Assembly: GCF_028290625.1 (NCBI RefSeq)
Contig: NZ_JAQGJM010000021.1
Location: 253 to 64,252 of the forward strand
Direction of reading: 5' to 3'
Source: Devosia sp.
Lineage (GTDB): Bacteria; Pseudomonadota; Alphaproteobacteria; Rhizobiales; Devosiaceae
DNA length: 64,000 nucleotides
The position numbers were made by a program, and so were the translations under genes. Every line of letters begins with the position of its first letter. Positions within the stretch are counted from its first letter, which is position 1. The notes under the pieces were generated by a model, which worked only from the letters and a program-made list of their open reading frames with translations, did no database searches and was not told where the DNA came from. Positions 21,131 to 41,806 of the stretch are shown in pieces.

Positions 21131-21569
21131 CCAGAAGCACAGATTGGTGGAAGCCCTGACGCTGGCCGGTACCAAAGAGATCGGCGGTCAGTTGTTCGGC
21201 GAACTCCTCGAGCCATCGAAGTTCCTCATCACCGAACTGGTCGTGCAGGCGAGACCCGGATCCTTCGCCCGGTTCGTGGTCGATCTCTTCCAAGCCGCTC
21301 GAGAAGCAATGCGGTTCTTCGACCGCACGGCGCACCGATACGTCGCCTTCAACTATATCGGAGAATGGCATAGCCATCCGAGCTTCGCGGTCAGGCCCAG
21401 TTCGACCGATGTGCAGACGATGCGAGGTCTCGTTTTGGAGCCCGATTTCCCAGGAAATTTCGCGGTTCTGGTCATCGTTCGGCTCGACGTTGACGAATTG
21501 ACTGTTGGCAGCTGGGTATTCGATCCACAAGGCCGCGAGAGCGAAGCGACGTTCGAGGTGCGGACGTGA
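21108..21569 (+). CDS. cap3: CBASS Cap3 (JAB/JAMM isopeptidase)
   Basis: JAMM motif EWHSHPSFAVRPSSTDVQTM (HxHx10SxxD) plus an upstream Glu in KEIGGQLFGE. Overlaps the cap2 end. Confidence 0.9.
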   Translation: MHLILAADQKHRLVEALTLAGTKEIGGQLFGELLEPSKFLITELVVQARPGSFARFVVDLFQAAREAMRFFDRTAHRYVAFNYIGEWHSHPSFAVRPSSTDVQTMRGLVLEPDFPGNFAVLVIVRLDVDELTVGSWVFDPQGRESEATFEVRT

Positions 21570-24409: not shown

Positions 24410-25749
24410 GGTTGCTGGAGCGGTTCAAGCGTTTATTCAACAAGAGGAAACCTACGCCTCCCCGTGTCGTTGTCGTGAATCGCAGTCTTTTGCGAGAGTT
24501 TGTCTATCTCGATGAGGTCAGCCTGCGAAGCCTGCTCTCTTCGCAGACTGGCGGGGTCACCGACAGCACTTCCGATGAAATTACGAGAGCGGCCGAAGCG
24601 GAGATAACCGGCGGCTTTGGGGCCACCTCGCCTGTGTTGAACGCTGAGGTCGGATCCAGATATCAGACCAGCAACAGCAGCACGCTTCAGACTTCGCGGA
24701 AGGCCACCGTGCAATCGTGGTTCCGCGAACTACTCGCCATCAGCGGCCTTCGCCTGATCGAAGTAGCGGAGGCGCCGCCGGATGTCGCAGAGTTGGACGA
24801 GGTGATTGCTGGCTCGCCTTCGCTAGGCGCAATAGGCGCCGCCCACCTGCGCCGTGGCGAATTGGTGGAATTTCGAGTGAAGCTCTCCGCGGACCCGGTG
24901 TTCCACATGAGCACAATGGTCACTGAATTCGCCGGTATGGCCGAGGACTTCCCAGGCAAACTGGCGCCTGATGCCGGCAAGGCGCTCGCTGAAGTGGAAC
25001 CATTGAACCGGATCCTGAGCAAACTCCTTGCCGGGCTCATTCCCATCCGCGGCGAGGCTGTTGACTACCGCGTGGCGACAGTGAGGGGACAGGACTGGCT
25101 GGTGCACAAGGCTATCGCTGAGAAGTTCGATCTTCCCAGCCGCCCTTTGATAATCGTAGGGGTCACCGAGCACTTGGCGTACTGGAAAGACATTCGGCGC
25201 GTATTGTTCTCCCAGGCCGAATTCACGATCCTCTGTCGAGTCTCCCGCAGCTTACTGCAGCCCACATGGACGCCGGTTAAGTTGGCGGACCTGTTCAAAA
25301 TGATCGCGCCCGATTTCGTCCAACAGATCAATGAAGCGAGCCTACTCTCGGTAAACCCCCAACAACGACCGAACGCTCAAGCTCCGGCGAACGCGGTCAT
25401 CCGCCCAGCTTTGAAGCACTACTCCACGAAACTGCTGAAGGTCGCGAAGTACAGCATCAGCAAGGAGCAGAAGGCCGTAGTGGGTGAACTGATCGAAAAC
25501 AGCTGCTCGGAGCAGTTGAACGCGGCGCAGGAGCGTCAGGCTTTCCGAATGATGAGGCAGTTGGTCGAGAGTTGGGTTCCGGTGGCAATCAGTCCGGAGC
25601 AAGACCTGGCTCTGAGGCAATCCGCCCGCAAGCAGGCAGAATCCAGACCAGCTTCGGCGGTCCGTTCTCGCAATATGGCGCGCTTGGAGCCCAGCATGGA
25701 GCCGCCTCCTGCTCTACTGGATGTAGAGGTGGTCGCCATATATTGGTGA
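24406..25749 (+). CDS. Uncharacterised 447-aa protein translationally coupled to the AAA+ ATPase (possibly DUF6414/DolA-like)
   Basis: ATGA overlap with the upstream gene. N-terminal LREFVYLDEVSLRSLLSSQTGGV followed by a Ser/Thr-rich segment and a helical C-terminus. No catalytic motif or TM segment recognised. Confidence 0.7.
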   Translation: MRLLERFKRLFNKRKPTPPRVVVVNRSLLREFVYLDEVSLRSLLSSQTGGVTDSTSDEITRAAEAEITGGFGATSPVLNAEVGSRYQTSNSSTLQTSRKATVQSWFRELLAISGLRLIEVAEAPPDVAELDEVIAGSPSLGAIGAAHLRRGELVEFRVKLSADPVFHMSTMVTEFAGMAEDFPGKLAPDAGKALAEVEPLNRILSKLLAGLIPIRGEAVDYRVATVRGQDWLVHKAIAEKFDLPSRPLIIVGVTEHLAYWKDIRRVLFSQAEFTILCRVSRSLLQPTWTPVKLADLFKMIAPDFVQQINEASLLSVNPQQRPNAQAPANAVIRPALKHYSTKLLKVAKYSISKEQKAVVGELIENSCSEQLNAAQERQAFRMMRQLVESWVPVAISPEQDLALRQSARKQAESRPASAVRSRNMARLEPSMEPPPALLDVEVVAIYW

Positions 25750-26150
25750 TATCGGACCGAGTGAAGCAGGACTCACGCCAACACCAGTATCGCGCGGCCC
25801 ACCCATACGCGATCGGACTATTGTTTCCGCCTGTCGCCGGGTCGCACGGCTGTCTGAGCGGCAAATCAGAGATCGTTGCCCAGGTAAAACGGGGGACATT
25901 GATCATCCCCACACATGAGTCAGGCCCTTGGTACGGAGTAGATATGACCAACGGGAGTACCGCATGTGTTCACAGCGAGTTTCTTGCGCAGCTCCGGTAA
26001 GTGTTCTCCACTCAAGTATGCGGACGCAGGGTGCCTACCCTGTTGTCCATCGATGCGTTCGTTGCGCGGATCTCGAACTTTGTGCGTGGCTGGCCGATGA
26101 AAATAGCCTAGTTGCAACTCTTAGGCATACAACGGTTATCTCTTCAAACT

Positions 26151-26180
26151 TGTCAGAAACTCGCCTATATGTATCTGACA
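26151..26180. promoter_or_regulatory. Inverted repeat upstream of abiEi (candidate autoregulatory operator)
   Basis: tgtcaga-N16-tctgaca, ending 15 nt before the abiEi ATG. AbiEi antitoxins are known to bind inverted repeats in their own promoters. Confidence 0.4.
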
Positions 26181-26194
26181 GAAAGGATTGCAAC

Positions 26195-26785
26195 ATGTCG
26201 GTAGTGGAAGAAGTGCGAGGGGCCATTAAAGGCAAGCGCAGCGGATCGGTGATCAGTGCCAGCATGTTTGCAAACATCGGCTCTCGCGAGGCGGTCGATC
26301 AAGCGCTCTCTCGTTTACGGAAGTCAGGAGAGTTGATGCGGGTTGCCCGCGGAATATATGTGCGGCCCGTCAATGGGAAGTTTGGCACTTATCCTCCGCA
26401 CTCCAGCGAAGTCGTGCGGTCGCTTAAGCACCATCAGCGAAAGCGGATCGTCGAGCATGGCCTGTCTGCGGCCAACCAGTTCGGCCTGACGACTCAGCAG
26501 CCACTTCGGCAAATCTATCTGACCAATGGTAGCAATCAGGTGCTCAAACTCGGCTCAAATCCGGTGATTCTGAGACATGCGCCAGAGTGGCAAACCATTT
26601 TCGCAAACCGGCCTGCTGGTGCCGCTTTGCGGGCGTTGTCGTATGTCGGCAGATCGGGCGCAGTGAATGCCGCACGGCAGATTAAAGCTCAGCTTCCTGA
26701 ACCGGAATGGGAAGTCTTGACGAAGGCGAAGAAACGATTTCCGGCTTGGGTAGCAAACGCAGTCGTGCAGGCTTCTAATGGCTGA
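26195..26785 (+). CDS. abiEi: Type IV toxin-antitoxin system AbiEi-family antitoxin
   Basis: SVISASMFANIGSREAVDQALSRLRKSGELMRVARGIYVRP is the AbiEi wHTH pattern. Start moved to ATG 26195. Overlaps abiEii by 8 nt. Confidence 0.85.
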   Translation: MSVVEEVRGAIKGKRSGSVISASMFANIGSREAVDQALSRLRKSGELMRVARGIYVRPVNGKFGTYPPHSSEVVRSLKHHQRKRIVEHGLSAANQFGLTTQQPLRQIYLTNGSNQVLKLGSNPVILRHAPEWQTIFANRPAGAALRALSYVGRSGAVNAARQIKAQLPEPEWEVLTKAKKRFPAWVANAVVQASNG

Positions 26786-27812
26786 CCCGTTTTTTCGCTT
26801 GAGCGAGCGGGACCGGATTGATGCCCTCGGTGCCGCAGGTGAACAATTAGGAAGACTCCCATTTATCCTTGAAAAGGACGTGATGGTTGTTTGGTGCCTC
26901 AGTGCTGTTTTTTCCTCGGCAGATGGATCCCACCTGTCTTTTAAAGGCGGTACTTCTCTGTCCAAAGTGTTTCGCCTGATCGATAGATTCTCAGAGGACA
27001 TCGACCTGACCTACGACATCAGGCGATTGATCGGCGATAAATTCGATATTCCTGTGAATGGGCTCCCTGCCACTAAGAGCGAGGGGCGCCGATGGACGGA
27101 TGAGGTGAGAGTTCGGCTTCCCGAATGGATCGAAGCGGAACTCATCCCAATTCTAAGCCGACAAGCGGAAATGGACGGGCTGAAACTGACGTTTCGCCAG
27201 ACCACCAAGGAAACTCTGAATGTCGACTATGCGCCTTTGCAAGCTTCCAGAGGGACCTACGTCAAACCCTCTGTTCTTCTGGAATTCGGCGCGCGTTCAA
27301 CCGGTGAGCCGGTTGAAGATCACTTAGTAGCATGCGATGCAGCCGAGCGTTTGCCTGGGATCTCGTTCCCTGAAGCTCGCGTAAGAGCCATGCAGGTTGG
27401 TCGAACATTTTGGGAAAAGGCGACGGCGGCCCACGTATACACATTGCAGGACACCCCAAAGGGTGACCGGTTTTCACGCCACTGGCATGACCTGCACTTT
27501 ATTGCCAAATCGGGATATTTCGATAGCGCCGTCACCAATCACGCTCTTGCCCAAACCGTGGCTGATCACAAGGCTCTTTTTTTTGCCGAGCGAGAGACGC
27601 CTGAAAAGTGGATCGACTACGGTGCTGCCGTAAACGGGGCGCTTAAGATCGTCCCGAGCGGACAGGCGCGTGATGCACTAGAGGCGGACTATGCCGAAAT
27701 GAAGGAGGCAGGGATTTTATCCCAGGACGCGCCAGACTTTAAGACAATCATGGACACTTGCTTGAACATAGAGCGCCGCGCCAACGAAATAGATTCCCCA
27801 TCACTGGAGTGA
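26778..27812 (+). CDS. abiEii: AbiEii/AbiGii-family nucleotidyltransferase toxin
   Basis: LSFKGGTSLSKVFRLIDRFSEDIDLTYD is the NTase GS..D.D motif typical of AbiEii. Confidence 0.9.
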   Translation: MADPFFRLSERDRIDALGAAGEQLGRLPFILEKDVMVVWCLSAVFSSADGSHLSFKGGTSLSKVFRLIDRFSEDIDLTYDIRRLIGDKFDIPVNGLPATKSEGRRWTDEVRVRLPEWIEAELIPILSRQAEMDGLKLTFRQTTKETLNVDYAPLQASRGTYVKPSVLLEFGARSTGEPVEDHLVACDAAERLPGISFPEARVRAMQVGRTFWEKATAAHVYTLQDTPKGDRFSRHWHDLHFIAKSGYFDSAVTNHALAQTVADHKALFFAERETPEKWIDYGAAVNGALKIVPSGQARDALEADYAEMKEAGILSQDAPDFKTIMDTCLNIERRANEIDSPSLE

Positions 27813-28108: not shown

Positions 28109-30946
28109 TCAACCGAACTCGTTTGGTCCTTTGATGATTAGTGTCCTGCGCTTTGCATGCACTCGCAGTTTCAGGCGAGAGAGCATCTCGAGAACAACAT
28201 CCACTGCGCGGTACGAAAAGAGGGGTGCGTCCGTTTTTTGATTATCGGACACGAGATCGGTGATCACACTGACGACGGCAATAGGCAATTCCTTGGAGAT
28301 TGCATTGGCCGCCTGAATAGCACCGGCTGCTCCTACGTCGAGAGCCGCCACGTTTCTGGCAACAGAGCTGATGACACTCGCGTCCACATATCCAAGCGCG
28401 GAACTGACTGATGCGAGCGATCCCACATGAAGGCGCCCGAAACGACCATCAATGGCCATGTCATGCCCCAGGCGCTGCAGGAGGAGCGGCGTCACAAGGA
28501 CTTGCGGCCGAATGTGATTGAGCTCATTTGACATGAACGTTGGTTCGAAGATTAGCACTTCCGACGAAATGACGACGTCGCCGATGCTCTGATTGGGCCT
28601 AAGTCCGCCACAGCGGCTTACGATGAAAACCCCGTCCGGGCGATTGTCGATCAGCATTGAGGTCATCGCAATCGCGGCGGCAACGCTGTTGGCTTCGCGA
28701 AGGATAGTGCACGTAACTCTAACTCCGTCGCGCGTTACGCCTCGGAAGTAGAGACGGCCGGACCGCGAGAACCGGCTGACGCGCAACAACCTCTCGAAGA
28801 ACGCGCTCGCCGCTTCATCGCCCTCAAGCAGAATTCCGATACGTGGTTGGCTGGAAACCTCGTCTATTGTCACGGGCTGAAGATCGTGCCGTTCCAACAC
28901 CCCGTTTGCGTCGACAGCGAGTGCGCTCCTCACTCCACCGTCCCTGACCACGGTGCCGATCACGATGCCGAGGACGTTGCCTTGCTGATCGGACACGACT
29001 GCTCCAGAGCCGCCCTCCTCAACCGGTGAATCGAGCGAGACCTCGAACACGTCGCGGTACCTTCGCTTGATCATGCCGGTGGATTGGATGTCCATGGTAA
29101 TCTCGACAGCGTCGATGCTGCCCTCGATCATCTTGGTAGGCATTTCAACGAACGCCCGCGCACCAGGTTGGCGAAAACCAAGTGCGCGCGGAGAAAATGA
29201 GAGTTCCCTTTCGACCCGGAGGATCGCCCAATCCGTGCTTCCCTCATGGATGTCAAGGGTGAGTGGGATGCGCCGCCCATCAACGACCATCTCGATGCTG
29301 TCTTGGAGAATGGTTGGAAACGCATGGGCGACGGTGACCGCGAATAGCTGGCCGGTGACGTCGGCTCCGAACAGGCCAACAGTCGCACGTCGCTCGCCAT
29401 TGACAAGGAGTTCGTGTCCGCTGGTGTAGTTCGCCGAAGTCAACTTGATTTCCTCAACTTCGCGCACGACCACCTCGAACCCTTCGATTTTGTGAGGGAG
29501 GTTCGGTTTTGCTCCCTTTTCCACCGTAACGACGATTGCCTGCTTGATTCCCACCCCGATAACACCCTGCTTCGTCATGAGCGCATCCCGTTCTGCATCG
29601 AGGACGTCATGGATCGTGGGGGCTGTATCAACCGGCTGTGCCGAACCTAGTGTGGCATCGTCATTTGGCGCGGCTTGGTGGGGCGAAGCCGGTGCCGATT
29701 TAACAACGGCTCGGTTCTGGTAGGCGGTCTCGACCACCTCGATCAAGGCGTTTGCGCCTGCCTCCCAAGAGCATTTTGATTCCAAATGGCCACGCAGACG
29801 CGGGTAGAAATATGAGTCGCCTGAGCCGTCGATAAGAAGGGGCAGCGTCGCGTCTGCGAACCGTTGCGCTGCCGCGTGCGCATCTCCTGAGGTATCGACG
29901 ACGCATGACCCAAAATCTTGACCTGCCTCGGCGCCGGTTTCAAGTATGAGTTCGGCTATTCCGCTCTGCCTCGAAACGACTATCGGAGCTCCAAACGACA
30001 TCGCCTCGCACGCGACTAAGCCATATCCTTCTTCGCGCGAAGGCATTAGAAACGCAGTGGCGCCGCGCAGGTCGGCGTTCAGGTTCTGCTTATCGGTAGT
30101 GTAAGGGCGCACCACAATCTCAGGATTGCCGCCTGCCTTCTCCGCGAGACGCACGAGCGCTTCCTGAAGCTTTTCGGGCTCGCTCTCTGCTCCCCGCACG
30201 ACGAAACGAGGTTTGAGTATTCTGGATCTAGTCTGTGCGCTCGTCGTCCATTCTTTATCGATGATGCCGGCCATAAGAGCGAATATGTCGAGGCCCTTTA
30301 CGCCGACGCTTTCAGTTCGTCCAAGGCAGACTACCGTGGGCTGCTCGGGCGCTGCGTTGCGGACGGGTTGCTCAGGCGAGAGCCCGCAGTCTATGCGATG
30401 GACCTTGTTGTGGTCGAGTTGATGCGCCTTGAAAGTGTCCTTGGTAACGCGCGTGAGACGCGGTCCCACACAAAAAACCAGGTCCGCACTTTTGGCCGCT
30501 TCAAGTTCGGCTCTTTGCTTCTCCTCGCGCTCGGAAACGTACCGGTCCTTCTTGCCCTCTTTCATGCCTTCCGTGCGCATCGGGTCCATGTGGATAAATT
30601 GGACGGTATTGGCTTGTTTGAAATAGGTGTTGCGAAGCAGAAGCGCCTGCTTGCCGGAGAAAGAGCTGTGGCCGACCACGGCCAAGACCGAACTCGGATC
30701 GATCCGTCGAACATCTTCGGATAGCATCACGCTTTCCCATTTGTCGGATTCCGCACCGTGTAGCAACGTGACGTTGTTGTTGTACGCCTGCTCGACCTCG
30801 CTCTTGTCGGCGAAGCTGACGACCGCAATGCAGTTGAGGTCGGGCCTTGTCTTGGCCAACGCTAATAGCAACTCGCGATTGACCGTCTGTATGCCGCCCT
30901 TGCTGCTGTCCCAGCGATTCATGACGAAGATGATGCTTTGCTTCAT
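28109..30946 (-). CDS. Triple-fusion protein: GT4-type glycosyltransferase + trypsin-like serine protease + PNP/MTAN-like nucleosidase domain (divergent)
   Basis: Residues 1-~420 are GT-B/GT4, with FLMPSREEGYGLVACEAMSFGAPIV (E-x7-E). Residues ~450-690 carry an S1 triad: AVTVAHAF (His), STDWAILRV (Asp), EEGGSGAVVSDQQGNVLGIVIG (Ser). Residues ~700-945 align by eye to E. coli MTAN: SVAAAIAMTSMLIDNRPDGVFIVSRCGGLRPNQSIGDVVIS and NVAALDVGAAGAIQAA..AVVSVITDLVSD. The VEME acidic motif is replaced by LDVG. Confidence 0.8.
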   Translation of the reverse strand: MKQSIIFVMNRWDSSKGGIQTVNRELLLALAKTRPDLNCIAVVSFADKSEVEQAYNNNVTLLHGAESDKWESVMLSEDVRRIDPSSVLAVVGHSSFSGKQALLLRNTYFKQANTVQFIHMDPMRTEGMKEGKKDRYVSEREEKQRAELEAAKSADLVFCVGPRLTRVTKDTFKAHQLDHNKVHRIDCGLSPEQPVRNAAPEQPTVVCLGRTESVGVKGLDIFALMAGIIDKEWTTSAQTRSRILKPRFVVRGAESEPEKLQEALVRLAEKAGGNPEIVVRPYTTDKQNLNADLRGATAFLMPSREEGYGLVACEAMSFGAPIVVSRQSGIAELILETGAEAGQDFGSCVVDTSGDAHAAAQRFADATLPLLIDGSGDSYFYPRLRGHLESKCSWEAGANALIEVVETAYQNRAVVKSAPASPHQAAPNDDATLGSAQPVDTAPTIHDVLDAERDALMTKQGVIGVGIKQAIVVTVEKGAKPNLPHKIEGFEVVVREVEEIKLTSANYTSGHELLVNGERRATVGLFGADVTGQLFAVTVAHAFPTILQDSIEMVVDGRRIPLTLDIHEGSTDWAILRVERELSFSPRALGFRQPGARAFVEMPTKMIEGSIDAVEITMDIQSTGMIKRRYRDVFEVSLDSPVEEGGSGAVVSDQQGNVLGIVIGTVVRDGGVRSALAVDANGVLERHDLQPVTIDEVSSQPRIGILLEGDEAASAFFERLLRVSRFSRSGRLYFRGVTRDGVRVTCTILREANSVAAAIAMTSMLIDNRPDGVFIVSRCGGLRPNQSIGDVVISSEVLIFEPTFMSNELNHIRPQVLVTPLLLQRLGHDMAIDGRFGRLHVGSLASVSSALGYVDASVISSVARNVAALDVGAAGAIQAANAISKELPIAVVSVITDLVSDNQKTDAPLFSYRAVDVVLEMLSRLKLRVHAKRRTLIIKGPNEFG

Positions 30947-31314
30947 GCTTACCGCTGCGCCCCCAAGATGCTCGGCGTTTCCCTGTTAACGCGTCCCCCC
31001 CGCTTTGTCCGTCTAAAAGTGCTGGATTGGCCGTATTTGGGTACAATCGAGGTGAGGCAGTTCTGCTACGATTTGCCGAACCGCTCGCAAATACATGCCC
31101 AAACCGCTTTGTCGCCTATGTATATAGGGCGCGTCGCAAGGGCCGCATGTTCCTCGACGATATTCGTATCGTTGTCGGCTCATGAGTGGAGGTGATTGAG
31201 AGTGCTAGTCAACATTTCTAAGCCCGACACAGCTGCTACATAGAAGGCAAAAATGCATTTGCGTCTCGAGCCGAGCTCTGGAAGAACAAATCCAGTCCGT
31301 TCGCAGAGAAAAAC

Positions 31315-34300
31315 ATGACCGAGTCGAAGTATTTTGACATTGTGGTTGTCGTGCCGCTTGAAGAGGAACTGCTTGAGGTCATCGAGCAGTTTCCGAGCAT
31401 TGAAGACCGAAGCTCCACCACGACGTGGTGTCATGTAGTCGATTCCGGGAAGCCTGGCATATCGATGCTCATCGTCCAGCAGCAGACGATGGGCAAAACC
31501 GCCGCTATAAATGCTGCGAATTTCGTTCTTTCAAAGTACGAAGCCGGCCTTATGGTCTGCCTAGGCATTGCTGGAAGTTTGAGCGGCGACGCCCGCCTGG
31601 CCAGCGTGTGCTATTCTGGCAGCATCATCGACGTCCTGGACAATGCGAAATTCGTCGACACCGACGACGGCGCCGCCGACACCGAACTTTCCCCGACCAA
31701 TTACGACACGCCGGACGAATTCACGCAGGCGTTCAATTATATCCGCACACAACCGGCCCTGTTCAAGTTTCACCAGGACTGGCAAGAACAGCGCGCTTTG
31801 GTCGCAAAAGAACTGGTTCCGCATGAAGTGCCCGCTCCTGGTGGTGGTACGGAACAAATTGGCAAGCCAACGTCCAAGGGCGGCGTGATCGTGTGCGGCT
31901 CGGTCAGTAAGAGCCACGTGTATAATGCCAAATTGCGAAAAATCGATCGCGCTTTGCTTGCGGTTGAAACGGAGTCCGGAGGGGTGTTCTCGCAAGCCCA
32001 TTTCCATGGCAGCGTTCCTGCTATCGCAGTGCGCGGCATTTCCGACTACGCCGACAAAGACAAAGGCCGGCTCGAGGATGCCAGCAAAGGTGGCGTGCGC
32101 CGGCTGGCTGCATCCAACGCGGCTTCGTTTCTTAAGCTCCAGATCGTCTGCAACACCTATTTTCATGCTGCGCTCGAAAGGCGCCGCACGGGCAGGCAAC
32201 AAGCTTTAGTCCTGGATAACCGGCCGGTAGTAGTTCAACCGCTCAGCGAACTGATGCTCGGGTTAGGTATTGCTGTGGATGCCGCACTGCGAAAACTCTC
32301 ACCCGAATACAAACTTCAGCCACAAGGCTATCATCTTCCTCTGCCGCGCATCCGTCGCCCAAACGCAACCAATGCGATCGGGACCAAGAGCGATAGCTCA
32401 CCCACCGATGTTCTCGACGCGCTGCAGGTTCAGGAAAAAATCCTCGTGAGCCTACCGCGCACATATCCGGACCACAGCCTCGCCTGGGTCATGGCCGACG
32501 ACTTGCTCACGCAGGAAATTGACGGACGACAGCCGGTACCGGTCGTGATTAACGGCGACGACATCCGGGGAAAGCGGTTCGGCTTTAACGACGTCGTCGA
32601 TATCGACCTGAACGCAATCGAGGCCATGGACGGCACTCAACTAGTTCTTATCGTTGATAACATTCCATTTGCTTCAAAGCACAGAATGGAACAGATCGTC
32701 GCCGAGATCGAGCGCTACAGCAGTGCAAAATTCATTTTTGTGACGAGGGCGGGAGACGCCGGCCTCCTCGATGAGTCAGACTTTCTAACACAGTCGGGCG
32801 CAGAGCACTTCCAGATCTGCGCTGTGTCTTTTTTCGAAATCGCGCATTTTATCCAGAAGAATTTTGGGATGACGGGCGCTGAAGCGGAGGTTGTCGCACT
32901 TCGACTTCGCGATACGTTTGAACGGTTTGATCTCGATGCTCATCCCACATACTTTGCTGGCATCCCGAAGGAAACCCTGACCGCGCTACTGCAGGCGAAC
33001 CGCCGGTCCGAACTCATTCAGCTAGCGGTCGATGGCTTCCTGACCTTCATAGTGGCTGGCGATCGCGCAGACGTCTCGCTCAGTCGGTCCACCAGGGCGC
33101 GTTTTCTGCGAAAACTTGTGGTGGAAATCAACGTCGAAAAGCGAGCCTTTGAAGAAGCCGATCTGGTTGCTTTCACGCGTGAGTTTGCAGAACTGCACGA
33201 TTTCGACATCGACCCACTGGCGTTTATCAATGGGTTCGTTGACCAAGGCATCATGCATTTTGAAGGCGGCAGGGCCCGTGTCTCGTTGCCGTTTGTGGAA
33301 TCGTATTTGCTTGCTTCGGAGTTGCACGCATCGTCAGACCTCGCACTGCGCTATTTTGATCCTGGCGACGATAACTTCGATACTGTCACTTTCGACCTTT
33401 ATGCAGAAATCGGTGCGTCGGCCGATCTCGTGCAGAGGATCGAAGCTGGACTCGAGCAGTGCATGATCGCCCTCAAGGAAAAGAACCCGGGCAAGCATAT
33501 ACTTCTCACTGACAGCATTTCCCCGGCAAATCTGCAAAAACCCGAACGAGCAGGAGCTTTGCGCAAGCGACTGCAAAAGGCTGCTGACGCAGTGCGGGAC
33601 GGAAAGGACGAGAGCCAGGAAAAGCAGCGCATGCTTGATCTGAGCGAAAAGATCCGGGAGGCCTCCGGCCGGCAGCAAAAAAGCCAGGATGGTGAAAGCG
33701 ATAAAGCTGGCGATATGGACAGAACGTTTGTGCCGCTCAACGATGCCGCGCGTCACTGGGTTATCGCCACTTTGCTCCTCGGTTCCGGCGCGGAGCACTT
33801 GAACGCCAGAACAAAACGCGCGCTAAGCACGTCGATTATCAGCAGCGCCGCTTTGATCATTGATGAATGGTGTCGCCAGCAGCAAAAAATCGACTTTGCT
33901 GCGATCAAGCGGAAAATGACCACTGACGAAGCCTTGGCTGACCTGCCTGGCGGGGAGGACATTGAAGAAAAGCGCAAGTTCATCGACGGGGGCGTCGATA
34001 TTCTGGAGTACACCGCGCTTGCCGAGCCGTTGCGACGCGTTTTGGGCTTCCTTTGCGAGCAAGCTAGACACCGCGTTCTCGCACCAAGCGTTGAGGCTGC
34101 CACAGTCGACGGCGCCATCGAAAAGATAATCCACGGCACCTGGCTAGCCGATATCGACACGGCCCGCGGCAAGGACAAACTCCGTCAGGCAATCATCGAT
34201 CTGCCGACAGCACAATTCTTTCGGGTTATCCTCGCCTCCCATTACCTGGCTCGGGTCTATTGGAATCACTGGCGTAAAGAGGATCGATTGCACCTGCTGA

Positions 34301-34431
34301 ACTCCGCTGAGGAGGTGATCAAGCCGCTTGAACTCAAGATCAACAAATCCGAGCTCAAACGGATGATCGAGACCGAAGCGGAAAAGGCGGCCAAAGAAAA
34401 AAGGCTGGAGACCGAAATCCGCAAAGGGTGA
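31315..34431 (+). CDS. PNP/MTAN-like nucleosidase fused to a STAND-like NTPase module with a degenerate P-loop and a long helical C-terminal region
   Basis: The N-terminal ~270 aa align to MTAN: DIVVVVPLEEELLEV, MGKTAAINAANFVLSKYEAGLMVCLGIAGSL, LLAVETESGGVF and AVRGISDYADKD, so the canonical acidic motifs are retained. The middle has STAND-like landmarks KILVSLPRTYPDHSL (no GK[ST]), QLVLIVDNIPF (Walker B-like), KFIFVTRAGD and ICAVSFFEIAHFIQKNFG. Confidence 0.75.
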   Translation: MTESKYFDIVVVVPLEEELLEVIEQFPSIEDRSSTTTWCHVVDSGKPGISMLIVQQQTMGKTAAINAANFVLSKYEAGLMVCLGIAGSLSGDARLASVCYSGSIIDVLDNAKFVDTDDGAADTELSPTNYDTPDEFTQAFNYIRTQPALFKFHQDWQEQRALVAKELVPHEVPAPGGGTEQIGKPTSKGGVIVCGSVSKSHVYNAKLRKIDRALLAVETESGGVFSQAHFHGSVPAIAVRGISDYADKDKGRLEDASKGGVRRLAASNAASFLKLQIVCNTYFHAALERRRTGRQQALVLDNRPVVVQPLSELMLGLGIAVDAALRKLSPEYKLQPQGYHLPLPRIRRPNATNAIGTKSDSSPTDVLDALQVQEKILVSLPRTYPDHSLAWVMADDLLTQEIDGRQPVPVVINGDDIRGKRFGFNDVVDIDLNAIEAMDGTQLVLIVDNIPFASKHRMEQIVAEIERYSSAKFIFVTRAGDAGLLDESDFLTQSGAEHFQICAVSFFEIAHFIQKNFGMTGAEAEVVALRLRDTFERFDLDAHPTYFAGIPKETLTALLQANRRSELIQLAVDGFLTFIVAGDRADVSLSRSTRARFLRKLVVEINVEKRAFEEADLVAFTREFAELHDFDIDPLAFINGFVDQGIMHFEGGRARVSLPFVESYLLASELHASSDLALRYFDPGDDNFDTVTFDLYAEIGASADLVQRIEAGLEQCMIALKEKNPGKHILLTDSISPANLQKPERAGALRKRLQKAADAVRDGKDESQEKQRMLDLSEKIREASGRQQKSQDGESDKAGDMDRTFVPLNDAARHWVIATLLLGSGAEHLNARTKRALSTSIISSAALIIDEWCRQQQKIDFAAIKRKMTTDEALADLPGGEDIEEKRKFIDGGVDILEYTALAEPLRRVLGFLCEQARHRVLAPSVEAATVDGAIEKIIHGTWLADIDTARGKDKLRQAIIDLPTAQFFRVILASHYLARVYWNHWRKEDRLHLLNSAEEVIKPLELKINKSELKRMIETEAEKAAKEKRLETEIRKG

Positions 34432-34566
34432 GTGTAACCCTTCCAGATTCAGAGTTTTGGCCTTCAATCCTTTTGGCTTTGAGCAAACCTTGGTTGAAGG
34501 CTCAGTCGTCCCGTCCGCAGGAGACCGAGCCTTCGTGGCTTCCCACAGACTTTAGCTGACAGCTAT

Positions 34567-34911
34567 TTAAGGTCCCTTCGGAACGCTTTTCGAGTTCAGA
34601 TACTCTTTGATTTCGCTCAGAAGGAATGAGGGATTGCTGATGTACTTTTCTAGAATTTCCTTTTTATCAGCAGCATAATCTCCATCTTTAACGGCTGTCT
34701 TCATATCGGTGATCAGCCCATTGAATTGCTCGTTCTGCATCAGTTCATCATTGAGCAAATCGTCCCTGACATCATCGTCCAGGGCCAAAGCCACATTGAT
34801 ATTGTGAACCTCACCGGTTGAGCCGTCTGCAAGCCTGATGCTTACGGACCCGTCGGAATGAATTCCTAGGGTGCCCTGGAACTTGTCGGGGTATTCGGGC
34901 TCATCGGCCAT
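34567..34911 (-). CDS. Small acidic hypothetical protein (114 aa)
   Basis: ORF in a visibly AT-richer segment, downstream of and co-oriented with the FtsH-like gene. No recognisable motif, and coding status is supported only by ORF length and context. Confidence 0.5.
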   Translation of the reverse strand: MADEPEYPDKFQGTLGIHSDGSVSIRLADGSTGEVHNINVALALDDDVRDDLLNDELMQNEQFNGLITDMKTAVKDGDYAADKKEILEKYISNPSFLLSEIKEYLNSKSVPKGP

Positions 34912-35225
34912 GGTGTGCGCTTCTTTCGTGTTTGAGGTGATGTCGAAGCGCGCTGCTCATCGCGCAAGGGGTGCCTGGGAGACCAAATGCCGATACGACA
35001 CCGCGCCAAGGCTGCTGAGCCTGCAAGGTGCAGACGGCTTCTCCATTCAATGGTCGTGTTGCGATGAATCCTTCGTTGATCGGAACGCTGGGGAAAAGTG
35101 GAACTTCCTCACCGGCCAGACATATTTTGCTCATGCTTCCAAGTTGCGCCCTTCGAGGTTGTGTCAGCGCGGCACGATGGGGATGGCCACCCCACTGCGG
35201 CCGAACCAGCCTCCTCTTCATCCAT

Positions 35226-37196
35226 TTAGTTGAGCACGCGCCGCGGCGGCTGCGGTGCTGCCAGTCCTGCTCCTCGAACCGTGGCTGCAACGATGGCTTC
35301 CATCTCCTCTCTTCGATCCAGCAAGATACCAGATGCTCGAGCAATTGCCGCGTCGAGACGACGACGCACGCTACCAACTATGGCGGCCGGGAGTATTGTC
35401 CGCAAGACGGGATCTTCGAGGTCGACCAACCCCGCCTCACCCAATCCAGATCTGGTCTCGATTTGCCGTGCCCATGCAGTAGCCAAGGCAAGATCAGAGT
35501 AATTTGAACCCACACCCAACAATGACGCGCCGCCGAACAGAATTTCTTCTGCCGCCCGGCCTGCCATCAGAACGGCGATCGCGTCATTATAGTCCTGCCC
35601 GGTTGGAACGTGGCCTGCCTCCAGCGTCCGGGAAAGGGTTCCGCTGAAATCCACGATCTCCTCCGCGGCAACATCCATCATGTCCAAGGCTTGGGCCACG
35701 ACGACTTGGCCAGCGCGATAAGTGGCAATACGACGCCGGACCTCTGGCGGCAGTTTCTCAAAAACGCCGGGGACTTGCTGGTGCAGAGCCGAAATCGAGA
35801 AGGGGCGCCCTGCCCGACGCGCGGTTGCCCTTGCCGCACGGACCAGCTTTTCGATGTCCGCTCCAGTCTTGCCTTGCAACTTTGGTGCCAGTGTCCGCAG
35901 CTCTTTCTTGGCGATGCTCGAACCTGCATAGTGGGCCAAGATCGCGGTGATCTCGTCGGAGCTTGGAAGCTTCATGATAATAGTATGGTCGAGCCGGCCA
36001 GACCGCGTGAGGGCAGGATCGATCCGCTCGACGTAGTTCGTCGCGCCAACCAGCACGAGACCTGGAGTGGTCGTTGCCTGCGTCACGAGCTCCAACATCA
36101 AATTGACGATCTGCGTCCAGTACTCAGCGTAGCGTCCAGAGATACTCTGCCGGCTTGATATGCCATCGAGCTCGTCGACGAGCAAAACGCAGGGCGCCTT
36201 CTCCATCGCCTCGTTGAACACCATCCGCATCTTTTTAAGTGTGCCCGAGAGATAGTCTTGCGTGTTCCATTCCGCGACGCTCGAGGCGATCAGGGGAACA
36301 TGCAGCGTACCCGCCAAGAGGCCGGCGAAGCTGGTCTTCCCCGTGCCAGGCGGGCCTGCCAGCAGCACGGAGCGGTGATCAACTTCCTCCCACGACAGTT
36401 GGCCACGCCGCCAGATCTCGAAGTCTTGAGCGAGCTCCAGACCCCAAACTCGTGCCTCCCCATAGCCGTGCTGGTCCTGCAATCTGGCGCGATCGACCTG
36501 CTTTACCGGCTCCTTCGGCATCAACGACTTGAGGCTGTCGACGCAGGCCTCTGGCGAGCGCCCGCGTCGGAAATGCAGGGCCAGATCACTTGCGGCCAGC
36601 TTACTTGGACTGCCCAGGTCTGAAAAGTTAGCTGGCATCCGGCCAAAAAATTCGACGAAGGCAGCTGCTAGCATGTCGCGTGTCAGTGTGGAGGCGTCGA
36701 CGATGACATCGGCGACTGTGGTGAACTGGGCAGGCGCACTCGCCTCAGGATCATAGAGCCAAACCACCGGCAGGCCACGTCTTCCGGCGTCGGCCGCCAG
36801 TCGTAGGCGCTCGTCAATTCTGGATCCGGAGCCAATGAAAATTGGGTATTTATCTTGGGCGCGCAGTTGATATTGAGGCTCAACGATAGCTCCTGAGGCC
36901 GACAGAACGACTTTGAGCACGCTGGCCATCAGCCCCGCATCCTCGGTAGTGCGAACCGTTATTGCGATGAATTGGGTGGTGGTGGCGAGCTCATTCAGGG
37001 ATTGAAAATGGGGCGCCAGGGCCAAGCCGATTAGGTGCGCGGCAAGAACGTGCTCGGCACCGTAGCCGGGCACGGAAATTGGTTCTGACAGGTCGTCGAC
37101 TTCTGACGACGGTTCGCTGGCGACGTTGGCGCGAAGCTGCTGAAGAATGAGTTCAGTAAGCGGATTTGATCCAGCGCTGGATTTAGAAGTGACCAC
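35226..37196 (-). CDS. Soluble FtsH-like AAA+ protein with an inactivated M41 peptidase domain
   Basis: Walker A LLAGPPGTGKTSF, Walker B VLLVDELDG, SRH LVGATNYVERIDPALTRSGRLD. The C-terminal region is collinear with FtsH M41 (MAGRAAEEILFG, SNYSDLALATAWARQ), but the HEAGH zinc motif reads YRAGQ (IATYRAGQVVVAQAL). No N-terminal TM helices. Confidence 0.8.
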   Translation of the reverse strand: MVTSKSSAGSNPLTELILQQLRANVASEPSSEVDDLSEPISVPGYGAEHVLAAHLIGLALAPHFQSLNELATTTQFIAITVRTTEDAGLMASVLKVVLSASGAIVEPQYQLRAQDKYPIFIGSGSRIDERLRLAADAGRRGLPVVWLYDPEASAPAQFTTVADVIVDASTLTRDMLAAAFVEFFGRMPANFSDLGSPSKLAASDLALHFRRGRSPEACVDSLKSLMPKEPVKQVDRARLQDQHGYGEARVWGLELAQDFEIWRRGQLSWEEVDHRSVLLAGPPGTGKTSFAGLLAGTLHVPLIASSVAEWNTQDYLSGTLKKMRMVFNEAMEKAPCVLLVDELDGISSRQSISGRYAEYWTQIVNLMLELVTQATTTPGLVLVGATNYVERIDPALTRSGRLDHTIIMKLPSSDEITAILAHYAGSSIAKKELRTLAPKLQGKTGADIEKLVRAARATARRAGRPFSISALHQQVPGVFEKLPPEVRRRIATYRAGQVVVAQALDMMDVAAEEIVDFSGTLSRTLEAGHVPTGQDYNDAIAVLMAGRAAEEILFGGASLLGVGSNYSDLALATAWARQIETRSGLGEAGLVDLEDPVLRTILPAAIVGSVRRRLDAAIARASGILLDRREEMEAIVAATVRGAGLAAPQPPRRVLN

Positions 37197-38752: not shown

Positions 38753-39424
38753 ATGCTTGATTCTACATCCTTCACCCCTACCCTGCACAGCCGCGCCTCG
38801 CGGCACATCGCCCTTCGAGCAAAGGGGCACTTTTCCGGCGCCTGCGTCATATACAAGGGCGGGACGCGCCAACTCGTCGTCTTTGAATCGCGGTGTGAAC
38901 TCGTGACCAGCTACCGCTGGTCCACCCGTCCCGACGTCGTCGACCTCATCGATCAGTATCCACTCGATCCCTACGTCGATGACGACGGGTCTGAGCACCG
39001 CCACGTGCTGGACTTCCTTGCGATCATGGACGACGGCCGACGGATCGGCCTCTCGGTGAAGCCCGAGGGTTCAGCGCAGCGCCGCGACTTCCGCCGCACC
39101 CTGCAGCTGATCTTGGCCCAAAACGCGGACCACCTGGACGAACTGCGCCTTGTGACTGAGAAGTCATTCACTCGGGCAGAAGCCGAAAACGCGGAACTGA
39201 TCCATTTCGTCGGCTCCGAAATCGACGACGAAGCGGATCGCCTGGTCGCAGATGTGATCGCCAGCCTCGCTGGAACGACCACGATCGAGAGCATCGTCAA
39301 CGCCACAGGCCTCGAAGGCCGCGCCTTCCGCGCCGTCATTCGCATGGTGGGTCGACGGGTCTGTTTCCAGGTCGATGAAGGTCGGCTGCGCTATCCCACA
39401 CTCGTACGCAGGAATGCAGCATGA
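38753..39424 (+). CDS. tnsA: TnsA-like endonuclease (Tn7-type transposition protein A)
   Basis: Restriction-endonuclease-fold motifs in order: VVFESRCE, HVLDFLAIMDDGRRIGLSVKPEGS (E...D...xK). Confidence 0.75.
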   Translation: MLDSTSFTPTLHSRASRHIALRAKGHFSGACVIYKGGTRQLVVFESRCELVTSYRWSTRPDVVDLIDQYPLDPYVDDDGSEHRHVLDFLAIMDDGRRIGLSVKPEGSAQRRDFRRTLQLILAQNADHLDELRLVTEKSFTRAEAENAELIHFVGSEIDDEADRLVADVIASLAGTTTIESIVNATGLEGRAFRAVIRMVGRRVCFQVDEGRLRYPTLVRRNAA

Positions 39425-39660
39425 ACCCGTTCCGTTTTTCCGCTGCCGACACCGTCAAGATCGCCGGAACCGTGTTTCAGCTCTGCGACGTGCGGCTGGA
39501 TGGCTATCTCCTTCGCCGCGCCCCCGACAATGCTGCCGAGTTCCACAGCAACGCCCAACTGATGGACATGTGGGTCCACGGCCTCGTTGACCCGCAGTTT
39601 GCTAACCCTGGTCCTTACTGGCAGGGGAAGATGCCAGACGCAGACGGTGCTGCGAAATGA
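39421..39660 (+). CDS. Small protein (79 aa) coupled between tnsA and tnsB
   Basis: ATGA overlaps at both ends (39421-39424 and 39657-39660). Weak similarity to the first ~50 aa of the downstream TnsB. Confidence 0.5.
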   Translation: MNPFRFSAADTVKIAGTVFQLCDVRLDGYLLRRAPDNAAEFHSNAQLMDMWVHGLVDPQFANPGPYWQGKMPDADGAAK

Positions 39661-41804
39661 CCCGGCTCCGTCTCGCCACTGTCGACAGACTTACCATCCA
39701 CTCCACCTTCTATCGCCCCATTGAAGACAATGAGGAGGGCGTTCTGTTGGAACGCCCCGACGGGCTGAAGGAGTCCTTCACCCATGAACAGCTGGAGGCC
39801 CTCTGGGGCAGCAACAGTTTGACGTTCGAGCCGGGCTATTACAGCGAGGCCAGGGCACGCATTCGCCTTCATACTGATGAAGAGCTTCTCAGCAACCTCT
39901 CCCCGGCCGAGCGGGAAGCATGCCTGTGGCGTCAGGCATATTGCGACCTGTTCCTGAAGTCGCGGGCCACCGACCCCAAGAAGTACAAGCGCACCAATGA
40001 CAGCGCATCGGCTGCCGCCTTGGATTTTGCGCCCATCATCGAGAAGTTGGGGCTCAAGGCTCCCGACAGCGTCGGGACACAGGCAAAAAGCCCGAAACGG
40101 AAGACGCGTGCCAAACCGAAGCTGACGGTCCAGCCCCCAGAAAAAGTCGGCGTTCCTTCGGGTCGCGCACTGCTGGGCTGGGTGCGGCTGTACGAGCGCA
40201 ATGGATGCTACGCCATAAGCCTGCGCGACAACCGCAGATTTTCGGGTAACTTCAATCCGCGTTTTGTCGCCGAAGTGCTGCACCTTCTCGCGCTCGTGGT
40301 GAAGCGCTTCGCCTCGGCGGAGCGGCCCACGAAAACTGAAGTCCACGCCAATCTCGAACGAGCGATCAAGAAGGCCAACAGGGCCCGCAAGCTCGAGAAC
40401 CTCGATCCCTTGCCCACACCCGGACGTGACATGACGGATGAGGCGATCGATCGCCTCCCGAAGTACGCCACGATGGTAGCCCGGTACAACAAAGAATACG
40501 CCGACAAGCACATGCCCTGGGTTGGTGCTGGCCTGCAGGTCGATATTCCGGGCCTCCGCATCGAAATCGATGAGCACGAAATCGATCTCATGACGCTGTG
40601 TTGCGTCGCGGGGATATGGGATCAGTTGACCGAAGAGGAACGCGCCAACATCGAGCGCGCTCGTCGCCTGGTCATCATTGCGATCTGCGTGGCCACCAAG
40701 GTCATCCTCGCCCTTCGGATCATCGACCGTGCCACGCCCATGGCGCAGCTGAAGGCGCTGGAGATGATCTCGCAGGACAAAACTCGATATGCACTGGCCG
40801 CTTCCGCCAAGTCCACCTGGCATCAGAGATGTGGCCTGAGCGGCGTGGTGACGGATTGGAATTTCCTGTCCCACGAGGTGCGCACGGCCGTGGCGGACTC
40901 CGGCGGCACGCTGGAATTTCCAGGCGCCGGCGACGCCCCGGCTCGTGGCACGGTCGAGCACGTTTTCTATACTGCCAGCCTGGGTCCAATTGCCCGTCTG
41001 CCGGGCCGGACGTTTTCCAATCCCGTCGTCAAGGCCGATCACGATTCCCAGGGGCGTGCGGGTGTCACCGACGATGAACTGGCCGACGTTCTCGTCAACT
41101 GGGCCGTCGACAACTACCACAACACCGCACACGACTCCCTCCATGGGGCGACGCCGGCTAACACTTGGGAGCACGCGGTCCGGCGCTATGGAATCAAGCC
41201 GCCGCCAGACCAGCGAACCCTGCGGGCCATCCACGGCATAAAGCTCAAGCGCACGATCAGCAGCCGCGGCATCCGCGTCATGTCGAACTATTACCGGACG
41301 GAAAGCGGGCCATTGGGCGAACACTTCCGCGATAGCAACGACCTTGAGGTCGAGATCCGCGTAAACACCGACAATCTGGGGGCCATATCGGTACGCCTGC
41401 CCACCGGAAAGCTGATTGAGGTGCCTTGCCGTGAGGCCTCGATGGAGGGGGTCACTGCGCAGTGGTGGATCGCTGCCACCACGCACCTGCGAACTCAAAA
41501 TCGGCATGAAAGCAATTTGTCGCGCGAGGTGGCTCTTGAGTCCCTCGACTATGTCGACAACCTCGCTCAACGCGCCCACAGCCGGGCCAATGTGAGGGCC
41601 TACCTGTATTCCCCCGAGGAGATCGACCAGGCCGAGGTCGCGTATTTCTACCACCTCGAATTCGCCGACCAACGCCGTCCCGCCGCGGACGACGGCTATG
41701 GCGAAGTAATTTCGGCGGAAAGCCCGGCGTCGAAACCGGTTGACCAGCCCGAAACCCCGCCTTCTCCCCTCCCCTCGCCTGCAAAGAACTGGAGCCTGGA
41801 CTGA
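39657..41804 (+). CDS. tnsB: TnsB-like DDE transposase (Mu/Tn7 family, rve-type catalytic core)
   Basis: 715 aa. Catalytic-core stretch LRIEIDEHEIDLMTL, GTVEHVFYT and NYHNTAHDSLHGATPANTWE (typical integrase-core end), plus a C-terminal acidic/Pro-rich tail. Confidence 0.85.
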   Translation: MTRLRLATVDRLTIHSTFYRPIEDNEEGVLLERPDGLKESFTHEQLEALWGSNSLTFEPGYYSEARARIRLHTDEELLSNLSPAEREACLWRQAYCDLFLKSRATDPKKYKRTNDSASAAALDFAPIIEKLGLKAPDSVGTQAKSPKRKTRAKPKLTVQPPEKVGVPSGRALLGWVRLYERNGCYAISLRDNRRFSGNFNPRFVAEVLHLLALVVKRFASAERPTKTEVHANLERAIKKANRARKLENLDPLPTPGRDMTDEAIDRLPKYATMVARYNKEYADKHMPWVGAGLQVDIPGLRIEIDEHEIDLMTLCCVAGIWDQLTEEERANIERARRLVIIAICVATKVILALRIIDRATPMAQLKALEMISQDKTRYALAASAKSTWHQRCGLSGVVTDWNFLSHEVRTAVADSGGTLEFPGAGDAPARGTVEHVFYTASLGPIARLPGRTFSNPVVKADHDSQGRAGVTDDELADVLVNWAVDNYHNTAHDSLHGATPANTWEHAVRRYGIKPPPDQRTLRAIHGIKLKRTISSRGIRVMSNYYRTESGPLGEHFRDSNDLEVEIRVNTDNLGAISVRLPTGKLIEVPCREASMEGVTAQWWIAATTHLRTQNRHESNLSREVALESLDYVDNLAQRAHSRANVRAYLYSPEEIDQAEVAYFYHLEFADQRRPAADDGYGEVISAESPASKPVDQPETPPSPLPSPAKNWSLD

Positions 41805-41806
41805 GC

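Follow-up and report, generated by a model that had tools for sequence, protein, structure and literature searches.

A PNP nucleosidase fused to a STAND-like module with a replaced P-loop in Devosia and other Alphaproteobacteria

The window analysed here is a stretch of 64,000 nucleotides from Devosia sp. (contig NZ_JAQGJM010000021.1, positions 253 to 64,252). On its plus strand, the gene at 31315..34431 encodes a protein of 1038 residues in which an N-terminal PNP/MTAN-type nucleosidase domain is followed by a central module with an AAA+/STAND-like fold and by an all-helical C-terminal domain. The Walker A motif is absent from this protein and from its relatives, and its place is taken by another motif that is conserved throughout the family. 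We consider it rather probable that the protein is a stand-alone, Avs/NLR-like sensor-effector of abortive infection, which combines a PNP effector, a STAND-derived switch and a helical sensor in a single polypeptide.

The gene and its motifs had been pointed out in an earlier reading made without database searches (the sequence-only reading). The list of open reading frames (ORFs) and the translation place these motifs as follows: PLEEELL (residues 14-20), MGKTAAINAANFVL (59-72), CLGIAGSL (82-89), AVETESGG (216-223), RGISDYADKD (240-249), KILVSLPRTYPDHSL (375-389), QLVLIVDNIPF (442-452) and KFIFVTRAGD (472-481), all as had been quoted. The order of the domains, compared in that reading with NLR proteins (effector, STAND-like middle, helical C-terminus), is found again in the AlphaFold2 models and in the Foldseek comparisons. 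The features of the gene are:

31315..34431, plus strand: whole gene, 1038 residues, PNP, pseudo-STAND and helical C-terminal domains (ATG start; ORF list, translation and full-length homologues)
31339..32136, plus strand: PNP/MTAN-type nucleosidase domain, predicted effector, residues 9-274 (Pfam PNP_UDP_1)
within this domain, plus strand: catalytic motifs PLEEE (residues 14-18), ETES (218-221) and RGISDYAD (240-247) (alignment to solved MTANs)
32275..32829, plus strand: nucleotide-binding-domain-like alpha/beta core, residues ~321-505, five strands alternating with helices (AlphaFold2)
32455..32487, plus strand: pseudo-P-loop P-R-T-Y-P-D-H-S-L-A-W, residues 381-391, at the Walker A position (AlphaFold2 and alignment)
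32641..32667, plus strand: Walker-B-like strand LVLIVDNIP, residues 443-451, end of strand 3 (AlphaFold2)
32728..32748, plus strand: sensor-1-like strand KFIFVTR, residues 472-478, strand 4 (AlphaFold2)
32830..33132, plus strand: helical lid domain HD1, residues 506-606 (helices in the AlphaFold2 model)
33133..33384, plus strand: winged-helix domain, residues ~607-690 (AlphaFold2; H325-339, H345-354, E358-361 and E364-367 in model numbering)
33385..34428, plus strand: all-alpha C-terminal domain, predicted sensor/regulatory region, residues 691-1038 (AlphaFold2)

Fold of the central module and replacement of its P-loop

The AlphaFold2 model of residues 290-720 was built on 22 relatives (289 is added to the model numbering to obtain that of the protein). 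It displays a predicted local distance difference test score (pLDDT) of 82.7 and a predicted template modelling score (pTM) of 0.78. The strands (E) and helices (H) of the core follow each other in the order E375-380, H389-397, E405-413, E441-448, H455-467, E472-478, H483-494 and E497-501, and they are continued by a helical bundle and then by a helix-helix-hairpin winged helix (about residues 614-656). The segment ICAVSFFEIAHFIQKNFG, which the sequence-only reading had taken for a winged-helix-like element, is really strand 5 together with the first helix of the lid, the winged helix being located at about residues 614-680. Compared with the PDB by Foldseek, the model gave 144 matches at E<=0.001, and all 50 of those listed, with E-values from 1.6e-6 to 1e-4, are P-loop AAA+/STAND proteins, in agreement with the P-loop NTPase fold that had been proposed for this region. 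They include Avs4 (8dgf, E 1.6e-6), PAB2304 (2qen, E 2.0e-6), NOD2 (5irm, E 2.4e-6), MalT (E 3.2e-5) and the plant NLR RPP1 (E 6.6e-5), and also RuvB, clamp loaders and ORC/Cdc6. The longest alignments are those with Avs4 and NOD2 (436-501 columns), which fits the arrangement of nucleotide-binding domain, lid and winged helix typical of STAND proteins. The model supports an AAA+/P-loop-NTPase fold, and it is likely, with less security than the fold itself, that the module belongs to the STAND proteins rather than to another AAA+ clade.

Sequence comparisons lead to the same superfamily by way of the relatives and not of the window protein. Among 22 relatives, 17 match the Pfam family nSTAND_NTPase4 (PF24406), a model just 58 positions long, over the winged-helix stretch (residues ~607-661; best E=1.9e-9), and several of them exceed its gathering score of 27 bits; no other Pfam family matches their central region. 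The family therefore appears related to nSTAND_NTPase4, although its member in the window falls under the threshold. The PADLOC defence candidate PDC-S60 matches 15 of 28 relatives over residues ~436-649 (best E=1.6e-8) and the window protein weakly (E=0.0026). No Pfam match to residues 271-1038 of the window protein was obtained even at E<=10, and a profile of residues 290-720 recovered nothing at E<=10 among all PDB sequences, so that the relationship with AAA+/STAND structures is visible in the comparison of folds alone.

In the model, KILVSL forms strand 1 (residues 375-380) and PRTYPDHS the loop leading into helix 1 (residues 389-397), which is exactly the position of a Walker A motif. 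Conservation at this site was counted on 259 collected proteins aligned to the profile, of which about 238 cover it. As already noticed for the window protein in the sequence-only reading, the signature GxxxxGK[ST] is missing, and none of the ~238 relatives has it at this site; searched as a regular expression over the 259 proteins, it gave one chance match elsewhere (P0035, residue 409). The relatives share instead the consensus h-h-h-h-x-h-P-[RK]-[TNS]-Y-P-D-x-S-L-[PA]-W, with the following counts out of 238: P177, R158/K32, T117/N51/S38, Y226, P233, D210, S187, L209 and W223. This pseudo-P-loop keeps the length of eight residues of a P-loop and a serine at the [ST] position. It contains neither the lysine nor the glycine-rich turn, and an aspartate stands where the phosphate cradle of backbone NH groups is needed. 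In the Walker-B-like strand, the first acidic column is D106/E82/N18 of 248 sequences (D or E in 188/248), and the second, N122/E45/G40/D27, is acidic in 72/248. The last residue of the sensor-1-like strand is basic in 206 of 251 sequences (R171/K35).

From the conservation of the substitute motif and the lack of any Walker A motif in ~238 relatives, we conclude that the family exchanged its P-loop at its root, rather than breaking it recently, and that strong purifying selection holds the new state. The "destroyed P-loop" of the sequence-only reading is right as to the loss of Walker A and misleading as to destruction, since the replacement PRTYPDxSLxW ranks among the best-conserved parts of the protein. 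Of the features that define STAND NTPases (Leipe, Koonin and Aravind 2004), the fold is present and the Walker A motif is absent.

The strongest conservation is found in the helical lid, where AHPTYFAGIP...LLQANRRSELIQLAVDGFL (residues 542-576) is the most conserved stretch of the family. The column entropy is 0.48 for the lid (residues 528-583), 1.11 for the pseudo-P-loop, 1.48 for the PNP domain and 1.6-2.0 for the C-terminal domain; the lid thus comes first and the pseudo-P-loop next, both above the enzyme domain. Conservation concentrated in lid and pseudo-P-loop hints at a site that a simple scaffold model leaves unexplained.

The same lid stretch (residues 528-583, AHPTYFAGIP...ANRRSELIQLAVDGFL; 32896-33063 in the window) has a pLDDT of 58-75 (model residues 250-300), the lowest in the structured core. 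An invariant lid modelled with low confidence would be in keeping with a site that needs a ligand, the PNP domain or another protomer to be complete.

Effector domain, C-terminal domain and distribution of the family

The N-terminal domain is matched by PNP_UDP_1 (PF01048) over residues 9-274 (E=1e-12, 48.4 bits for a cut-off of 25.1). In an alignment with solved MTANs, PLEEE falls on AMEEE, AVETES on AVEMEA and RGISDYAD on RAISDVAD. The aligned acidic positions are those of the MTAN catalytic residues Glu12, Glu174 and Asp197, whose roles we take from established MTAN enzymology. Conservation in 28 relatives reaches at least 90% at T219, E220, G222, R240-D244, A246 and D247; the glutamates of PLEEE are the majority state in these relatives, yet remain outside the nearly invariant positions. 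The PNP/MTAN landmarks recognised in the sequence-only reading are thus retained, and to judge from these motifs the domain is a PNP/MTAN-type nucleosidase with an apparently intact catalytic site.

The model of the CBASS "PN-superfamily" effector in PADLOC matches the domain with E=5e-9, which is comparable to its best match with a housekeeping MTAN equivalog, and it matches 27 of the 28 relatives (best E=6.9e-15). The housekeeping MTAN equivalog gives 36 bits for a cut-off of 169, and the scores are far below every NCBIfam equivalog cut-off. By cleavage, the PNP domains of Cap17, DtcC and NLR-like proteins release adenine from ATP/dATP, and such domains have been reported as N-terminal parts of Avs proteins (Rousset et al. 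2023, bioRxiv 10.1101/2023.01.24.525353). It is plausible that the domain is a competent nucleosidase effector, because the catalytic motifs are kept, the PN-effector model matches and immune ATP nucleosidases of the PNP type are known. By analogy with Cap17, DtcC and the PNP-NLRs, the domain is probably an ATP-destroying nucleosidase, and its substrate would be ATP/dATP or a related adenine nucleotide.

The C-terminal domain was modelled separately (residues 690-1038; pLDDT 84.5, pTM 0.82) and consists of 16 helices without any strand, including a charged helical hairpin at residues ~743-791. For this domain Foldseek against the PDB found nothing under E=0.02; designed helical repeats come first (E 0.02), and the others are 14-3-3 proteins and helical proteins or repeats of a generic kind. 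Conserved motifs of the domain are LLGSGAEHL, CEQARHRVL, WL.DID..RG and RVYWNHW.

Searched with residues 280-1038, the databases contain more than 200 clusters (90% identity) related over the full length with 43-82% identity. Nearly all are of ~1020-1040 residues and all have the PNP domain; the named sources are Devosia, Sphingomonas, Novosphingobium, Rhizobium, Bradyrhizobium, Acetobacter and other Alphaproteobacteria. The profile of residues 290-720, compared with 1.84 billion representatives, recovered 257 proteins (representatives at 50% identity), 234 of them at E<=1e-10. The 150 matches listed all belong to the same family with the same architecture, and none of these 150 has an intact P-loop or makes a bridge to an active STAND clade; the 23 weakest of the 257 lie outside the listing and an active relative might hide among them. 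Since this exhaustive search gave just 257 proteins, the family is compact and isolated. It is nearly all alphaproteobacterial (about 257 clusters at 50% identity) and sporadic in its distribution, the gene being present in 37 of 185,579 species genomes. Every length variant tested retains the PNP domain, and the architecture of the family is fixed. No homologue was detected in 50,697 phage records.

The closest relative is that of Devosia crocina (locus L001; 82% amino acid identity). The similarity of the DNA with this relative extends over 31328-34385, inside the ORF and over nearly all of it. A scan of 30800-35300 for promoters and terminators gave nothing exceeding the shuffled expectation.

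A distant, split version (30% identity) occurs on the mobilizable plasmid NZ_CP011122 of Acetobacter oryzifermentans (L038, 8081-11136). It is composed of a PNP protein of 284 residues with intact ETESGG and RGISDMAD motifs and, 170 bp further, of a pseudo-STAND and helical protein of 676 residues that reads IPRTFSGNNLGW at the P-loop site. The surrounding genes are restriction-modification (R-M), toxin-antitoxin and insertion sequence (IS) genes. This split copy indicates that effector and switch can be separate polypeptides.

Proposed mode of action, related systems and alternatives

In the mechanism that we propose, the PNP/MTAN-type domain would be the effector and, by analogy with the known immune nucleosidases, would stop the growth of the infected cell by breaking the N-glycosidic bond of ATP/dATP or of a related adenine nucleotide. 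The central module would be a STAND-derived scaffold whose fold persisted when its P-loop was lost at the root of the family, and that would serve as a conformational and oligomerisation switch with no need to bind or hydrolyse NTP in the canonical way. The protein would be kept off by the all-helical C-terminal domain until this domain binds a trigger, probably a phage protein. Binding would then cause opening and multimerisation, and the PNP domains would be brought together. The active sites of PNP/MTAN enzymes form at subunit interfaces, so this proximity would switch the enzyme on. An immune-type role is favoured because of the matches with the PN-effector and PDC-S60 models, the fold shared with Avs4 and NOD2, the mobile and defence genes of the flanks and the sporadic distribution.

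The nearest known systems are the PNP-Avs and bacterial NLR-like proteins and the fungal PNP-NLRs, which are likewise single chains with an N-terminal PNP domain, a STAND-fold middle and a helical C-terminus. The tripartite single chain of the Avs type (effector, STAND, sensor) is present here in a defence context, as are the defence-island setting of Avs genes and a best structural match with Avs4. Unlike Avs proteins and PNP-NLRs, the family has no Walker A, its effector never varies, and its C-terminal domain is not recognisable as tetratricopeptide repeats and has no fold match. According to the legend of Extended Data Fig. 11 in a 2026 survey of defence STAND proteins (PMC13581612), KpAvs8, of the Avs8/PD-lambda-4 family, has degenerate Walker A and B motifs yet responds to its trigger. 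As described in that legend, it resembles the present family as a stand-alone protein of the Avs type with degenerate NTPase motifs, implying activation without ATP hydrolysis. There the degeneration is reported for KpAvs8, with the motifs shown beside those of EcAvs8, whereas here the loss is ancestral and is accompanied by a conserved new motif; effector and sensor also differ, and the likeness to the protein of the legend is one of description. The survey distinguishes 589 clades, and the PNP-pseudo-STAND clade may already be catalogued among them without comment.

Fusions of signalling or effector domains with catalytically inactive STAND modules are known under the names iSTAND and iSTAND2 and from an inactive paralogue of nSTAND2 (Kaur, Burroughs, Iyer, Aravind; PMC7159879, PMC8195603), and a BrxB-type iSTAND without C-terminal helical bundle is part of BREX (PMC12839542). 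These modules are also derived from STAND proteins, have eroded NTP-binding motifs, are often fused to N-terminal effectors and are proposed to be sensors. They are described as rapidly evolving and they belong to systems of several genes (MoxR-vWA ternary systems, pairs with an active paralogue, BREX), while the family presented here is without conserved partners, keeps the lid and the winged helix and is highly conserved exactly there. The MoxR AAA+ and vWA genes of the ternary iSTAND systems do not recur beside the gene (126 flanking proteins, 35 loci). Cap17 of CBASS and DtcC of Detocs have an effector of the same PNP superfamily, as the match with the CBASS PN-effector model indicates; unlike our protein, they are switched by a cyclic-nucleotide sensor domain or by phosphotransfer and not by a STAND-like module. 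The protein would work like the Avs, iSTAND and STAND families and is demonstrably a member of no named one. Each of its ingredients has been published before, namely PNP effectors (10.1101/2023.01.24.525353), inactive STAND modules (PMC7159879, PMC8195603, PMC12839542) and, with KpAvs8, one Avs whose motifs are degenerate (PMC13581612), and to call it mechanistically new, as the sequence-only reading did, was an overstatement. The family is distinct by its single gene with fixed architecture, by the ancestral loss and by a replacement motif and lid more conserved than the enzyme.

Two neighbouring genes matter for the alternatives:

28109-30946, minus strand: GT4-conflict/trypsin/PNP protein, 945 residues
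35226-37196, minus strand: FtsH-like AAA+ protein, 656 residues (AAA residues 277-408, weak Peptidase_M41 residues 532-596)

A role in nucleoside salvage, as a housekeeping or regulatory methylthioadenosine/S-adenosylhomocysteine (MTA/SAH) or purine nucleosidase to which a large regulatory tail is attached, is suggested by the annotation of some relatives as "nucleoside phosphorylase" or "MTA/SAH nucleosidase family" and by four loci in which the gene directly follows nrdJ, which encodes a ribonucleotide reductase and is located 14.6 kb upstream in the window. We judge it very unlikely, given the equivalog scores far under all cut-offs, the presence in so few species genomes, the variable contexts rich in mobile and defence genes, the closest relative that shares the ORF alone, and a STAND-like architecture without precedent in salvage enzymes. 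A system of several genes, in which the FtsH-like AAA+ protein and/or the GT4-trypsin-PNP protein would take part and a separate ATPase would supply the energy, has even less to recommend it. The three genes are indeed adjacent in the window, the AAA+ protein matches models of the anti-phage IetA/IteA ATPases, and published ternary systems with an inactive STAND work with a separate AAA+ protein, MoxR (PMC7159879). Nevertheless, when 37 related loci from species-representative genomes were searched by tblastn with 11 neighbours of the window, the GT4-trypsin-PNP gene was found in 0/37 and a match to the AAA+ neighbour within 10 kb was absent from 36/37. The remaining locus (L017) has an AAA+ gene ~3.4 kb upstream, which is 34% identical over the generic AAA domain and also matches a second AAA+ protein of the window. 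All-against-all clustering of 1261 flanking ORFs gave no family in more than four loci, and in the Pfam and PADLOC scan of the 126 flanking proteins no family was represented by more than 4 of these proteins, the commonest being ribonucleotide reductase and resolvase. The AAA+ gene of the window is moreover convergent and not co-oriented. About 45 clusters have the GT4-trypsin-PNP architecture, and three homologues that were looked up stand alone in variable or mobile contexts, without an AAA+ or PNP-pseudo-STAND gene beside them. Since related loci lack the GT4 and AAA+ genes and the GT4 homologues stand alone, the three adjacent genes are independent modules of the island; the sequence-only reading was correct that a separate AAA+ gene is nearby, and the pairing that it suggested did not hold. 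Least credible of all is a decaying or decoy remnant of an active PNP-STAND protein, non-functional or purely regulatory. The lack of Walker A and of an nSTAND_NTPase4 match in the window protein would agree with it, but the ORF of 1038 residues is intact, 257 representative clusters keep length and architecture, and the catalytic motifs, the pseudo-P-loop and the lid appear to be under strong purifying selection; the alignments show the opposite of a ratio of nonsynonymous to synonymous substitutions (dN/dS) near 1 or of frequent frameshifts.

Several observations nevertheless weigh against the Avs/NLR-like sensor-effector that we favour. The Foldseek E-values of ORC/Cdc6, RuvB and clamp loaders almost equal those of the STAND proteins, the window protein has no nSTAND_NTPase4 match even at E<=10, and PADLOC returned only PN-effector, PDC-M60C and PDC-S60 and no Avs or NLR model. 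In typical Avs families the N-terminal effectors are exchanged and the sensors evolve fast; the present family has an invariant effector and a C-terminal domain of moderate conservation. The scan of the flanks covers three to four genes per locus with the 25 commonest families listed. Finally, the peak of conservation lies in the lid and the pseudo-P-loop and not in the enzyme, which hints at a site for a specific ligand or partner. This last point leads to a tentative alternative that we regard as unlikely, namely that the STAND pocket has been rebuilt into a new conserved site (Y384, P385, D386, S388 and W391 with the lid AHPTYFAGIP...ANRRSE), a sensor of a non-nucleotide or non-canonical ligand or the lock of an ATP-independent switch. 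The pocket would then be repurposed for another small ligand (a nucleoside, a base, a nucleotide-derived signal or a phage metabolite) or for ATP/ADP bound in a non-canonical manner, and the nucleotide-binding domain itself would be the sensor or an allosteric site. The low entropies of the substitute motif and of the lid (1.11 and 0.48, against 1.48 for the catalytic domain), the preserved P-loop length and serine, and the low pLDDT of an invariant lid, which one would expect where a ligand or partner completes the site, all speak for it. On the other hand, the missing lysine and glycine-rich turn, the aspartate at the phosphate cradle and the second acidic residue of Walker B, mostly absent, are unfavourable, and the conservation could equally mean an intramolecular or oligomer interface.

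According to the general view, an NLR/STAND immune receptor is switched on only with the binding or exchange of a nucleotide. A conserved family that keeps the whole STAND scaffold with another motif in place of the P-loop is a natural test of the part of the nucleotide in NLR activation, and also of the coupling of an ATP-depleting effector to a sensor. With an ATP-independent switch lock, the destruction of ATP by the effector would leave the effector's own activator working, and the protein would be a natural NLR-type immune protein whose activation is uncoupled from cellular ATP. Under the sensor-effector reading, this unannotated gene adds a candidate defence system, made of one gene, to those of Rhizobiales, Sphingomonadales and Acetobacteraceae, in which, to our knowledge, few defence systems have been tested.

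Defence island and neighbouring genes

The gene lies in a dense defence island of the window, composed of CBASS-like, AbiE, AAA+/DUF6414 and GT4-conflict genes and bordered by a Tn7-like module. Besides the two neighbours given above, the features are:

12992-16705, plus strand: nrdJ, class II ribonucleotide reductase
16945-18327, plus strand: Tle1-like phospholipase catalytic domain of type VI secretion systems with a C-terminal LysM, between nrdJ and the CBASS-like genes
18432-22978, plus strand: CBASS-like set, with a SMODS nucleotidyltransferase (18432-19448), a ThiF/E1-like protein (19445-21130) and a SAVED-domain Cap4-like effector (21566-22978)
23174-25749, plus strand: overlapping pair of a CDC48/FtsH-type AAA+ ATPase (411 residues) and then a DUF6414 protein (447 residues, E=3e-58)
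25928-27812, plus strand: AbiEi/AbiEii toxin-antitoxin pair of abortive infection (PADLOC, 1e-55 and 2e-92)
38753-44628, plus strand: Tn7-like transposition module bordering the island, with a weak TnsA-like protein (38753-39424), a Mu/TnsB-like transposase (39657-41804), a TniB ATPase (41807-42817) and TniQ (42697-44628)
44890-46474: HipA_2-like and DUF3037 genes after the Tn7-like module

The AAA+/DUF6414 pair has the appearance of a defence candidate of two genes. In the AbiEi ORF as called, the N-terminus is extended by ~90 residues with a weak RNHCP match, and the true start of this ORF may be further downstream. The GT4-trypsin-PNP protein is composed of a GT4-conflict domain (residues 7-401, E=1e-83), a weak trypsin-like peptidase domain (residues 536-661) and a divergent PNP domain (residues 703-908). 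The two adjacent genes with PNP domains (28109-30946 and 31315-34431) were considered as recent paralogues, an idea that was rejected as BLASTP found no significant similarity between the domains. The FtsH-like AAA+ protein matches the IetA/IteA models with 4e-25 in PADLOC and 1.4e-24 in NCBIfam, the latter below the cut-off, and its 270 N-terminal residues have no domain match.

At the related loci, the flanking proteins include resolvases, integrases, IS elements, type I R-M, DUF4062 proteins, helicases and NrdJ. In the four loci mentioned above (L014, L022, L024 and L037, at about 5.4-9.8 kb), the PNP-pseudo-STAND gene is located 200-300 bp directly downstream of nrdJ and on the same strand, and the nrdJ products are 67-78% identical to NrdJ of the window over the main aligned segments. 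In the window, other defence genes are found between nrdJ and the gene. In these Alphaproteobacteria, defence genes may have inserted repeatedly into the region downstream of nrdJ.

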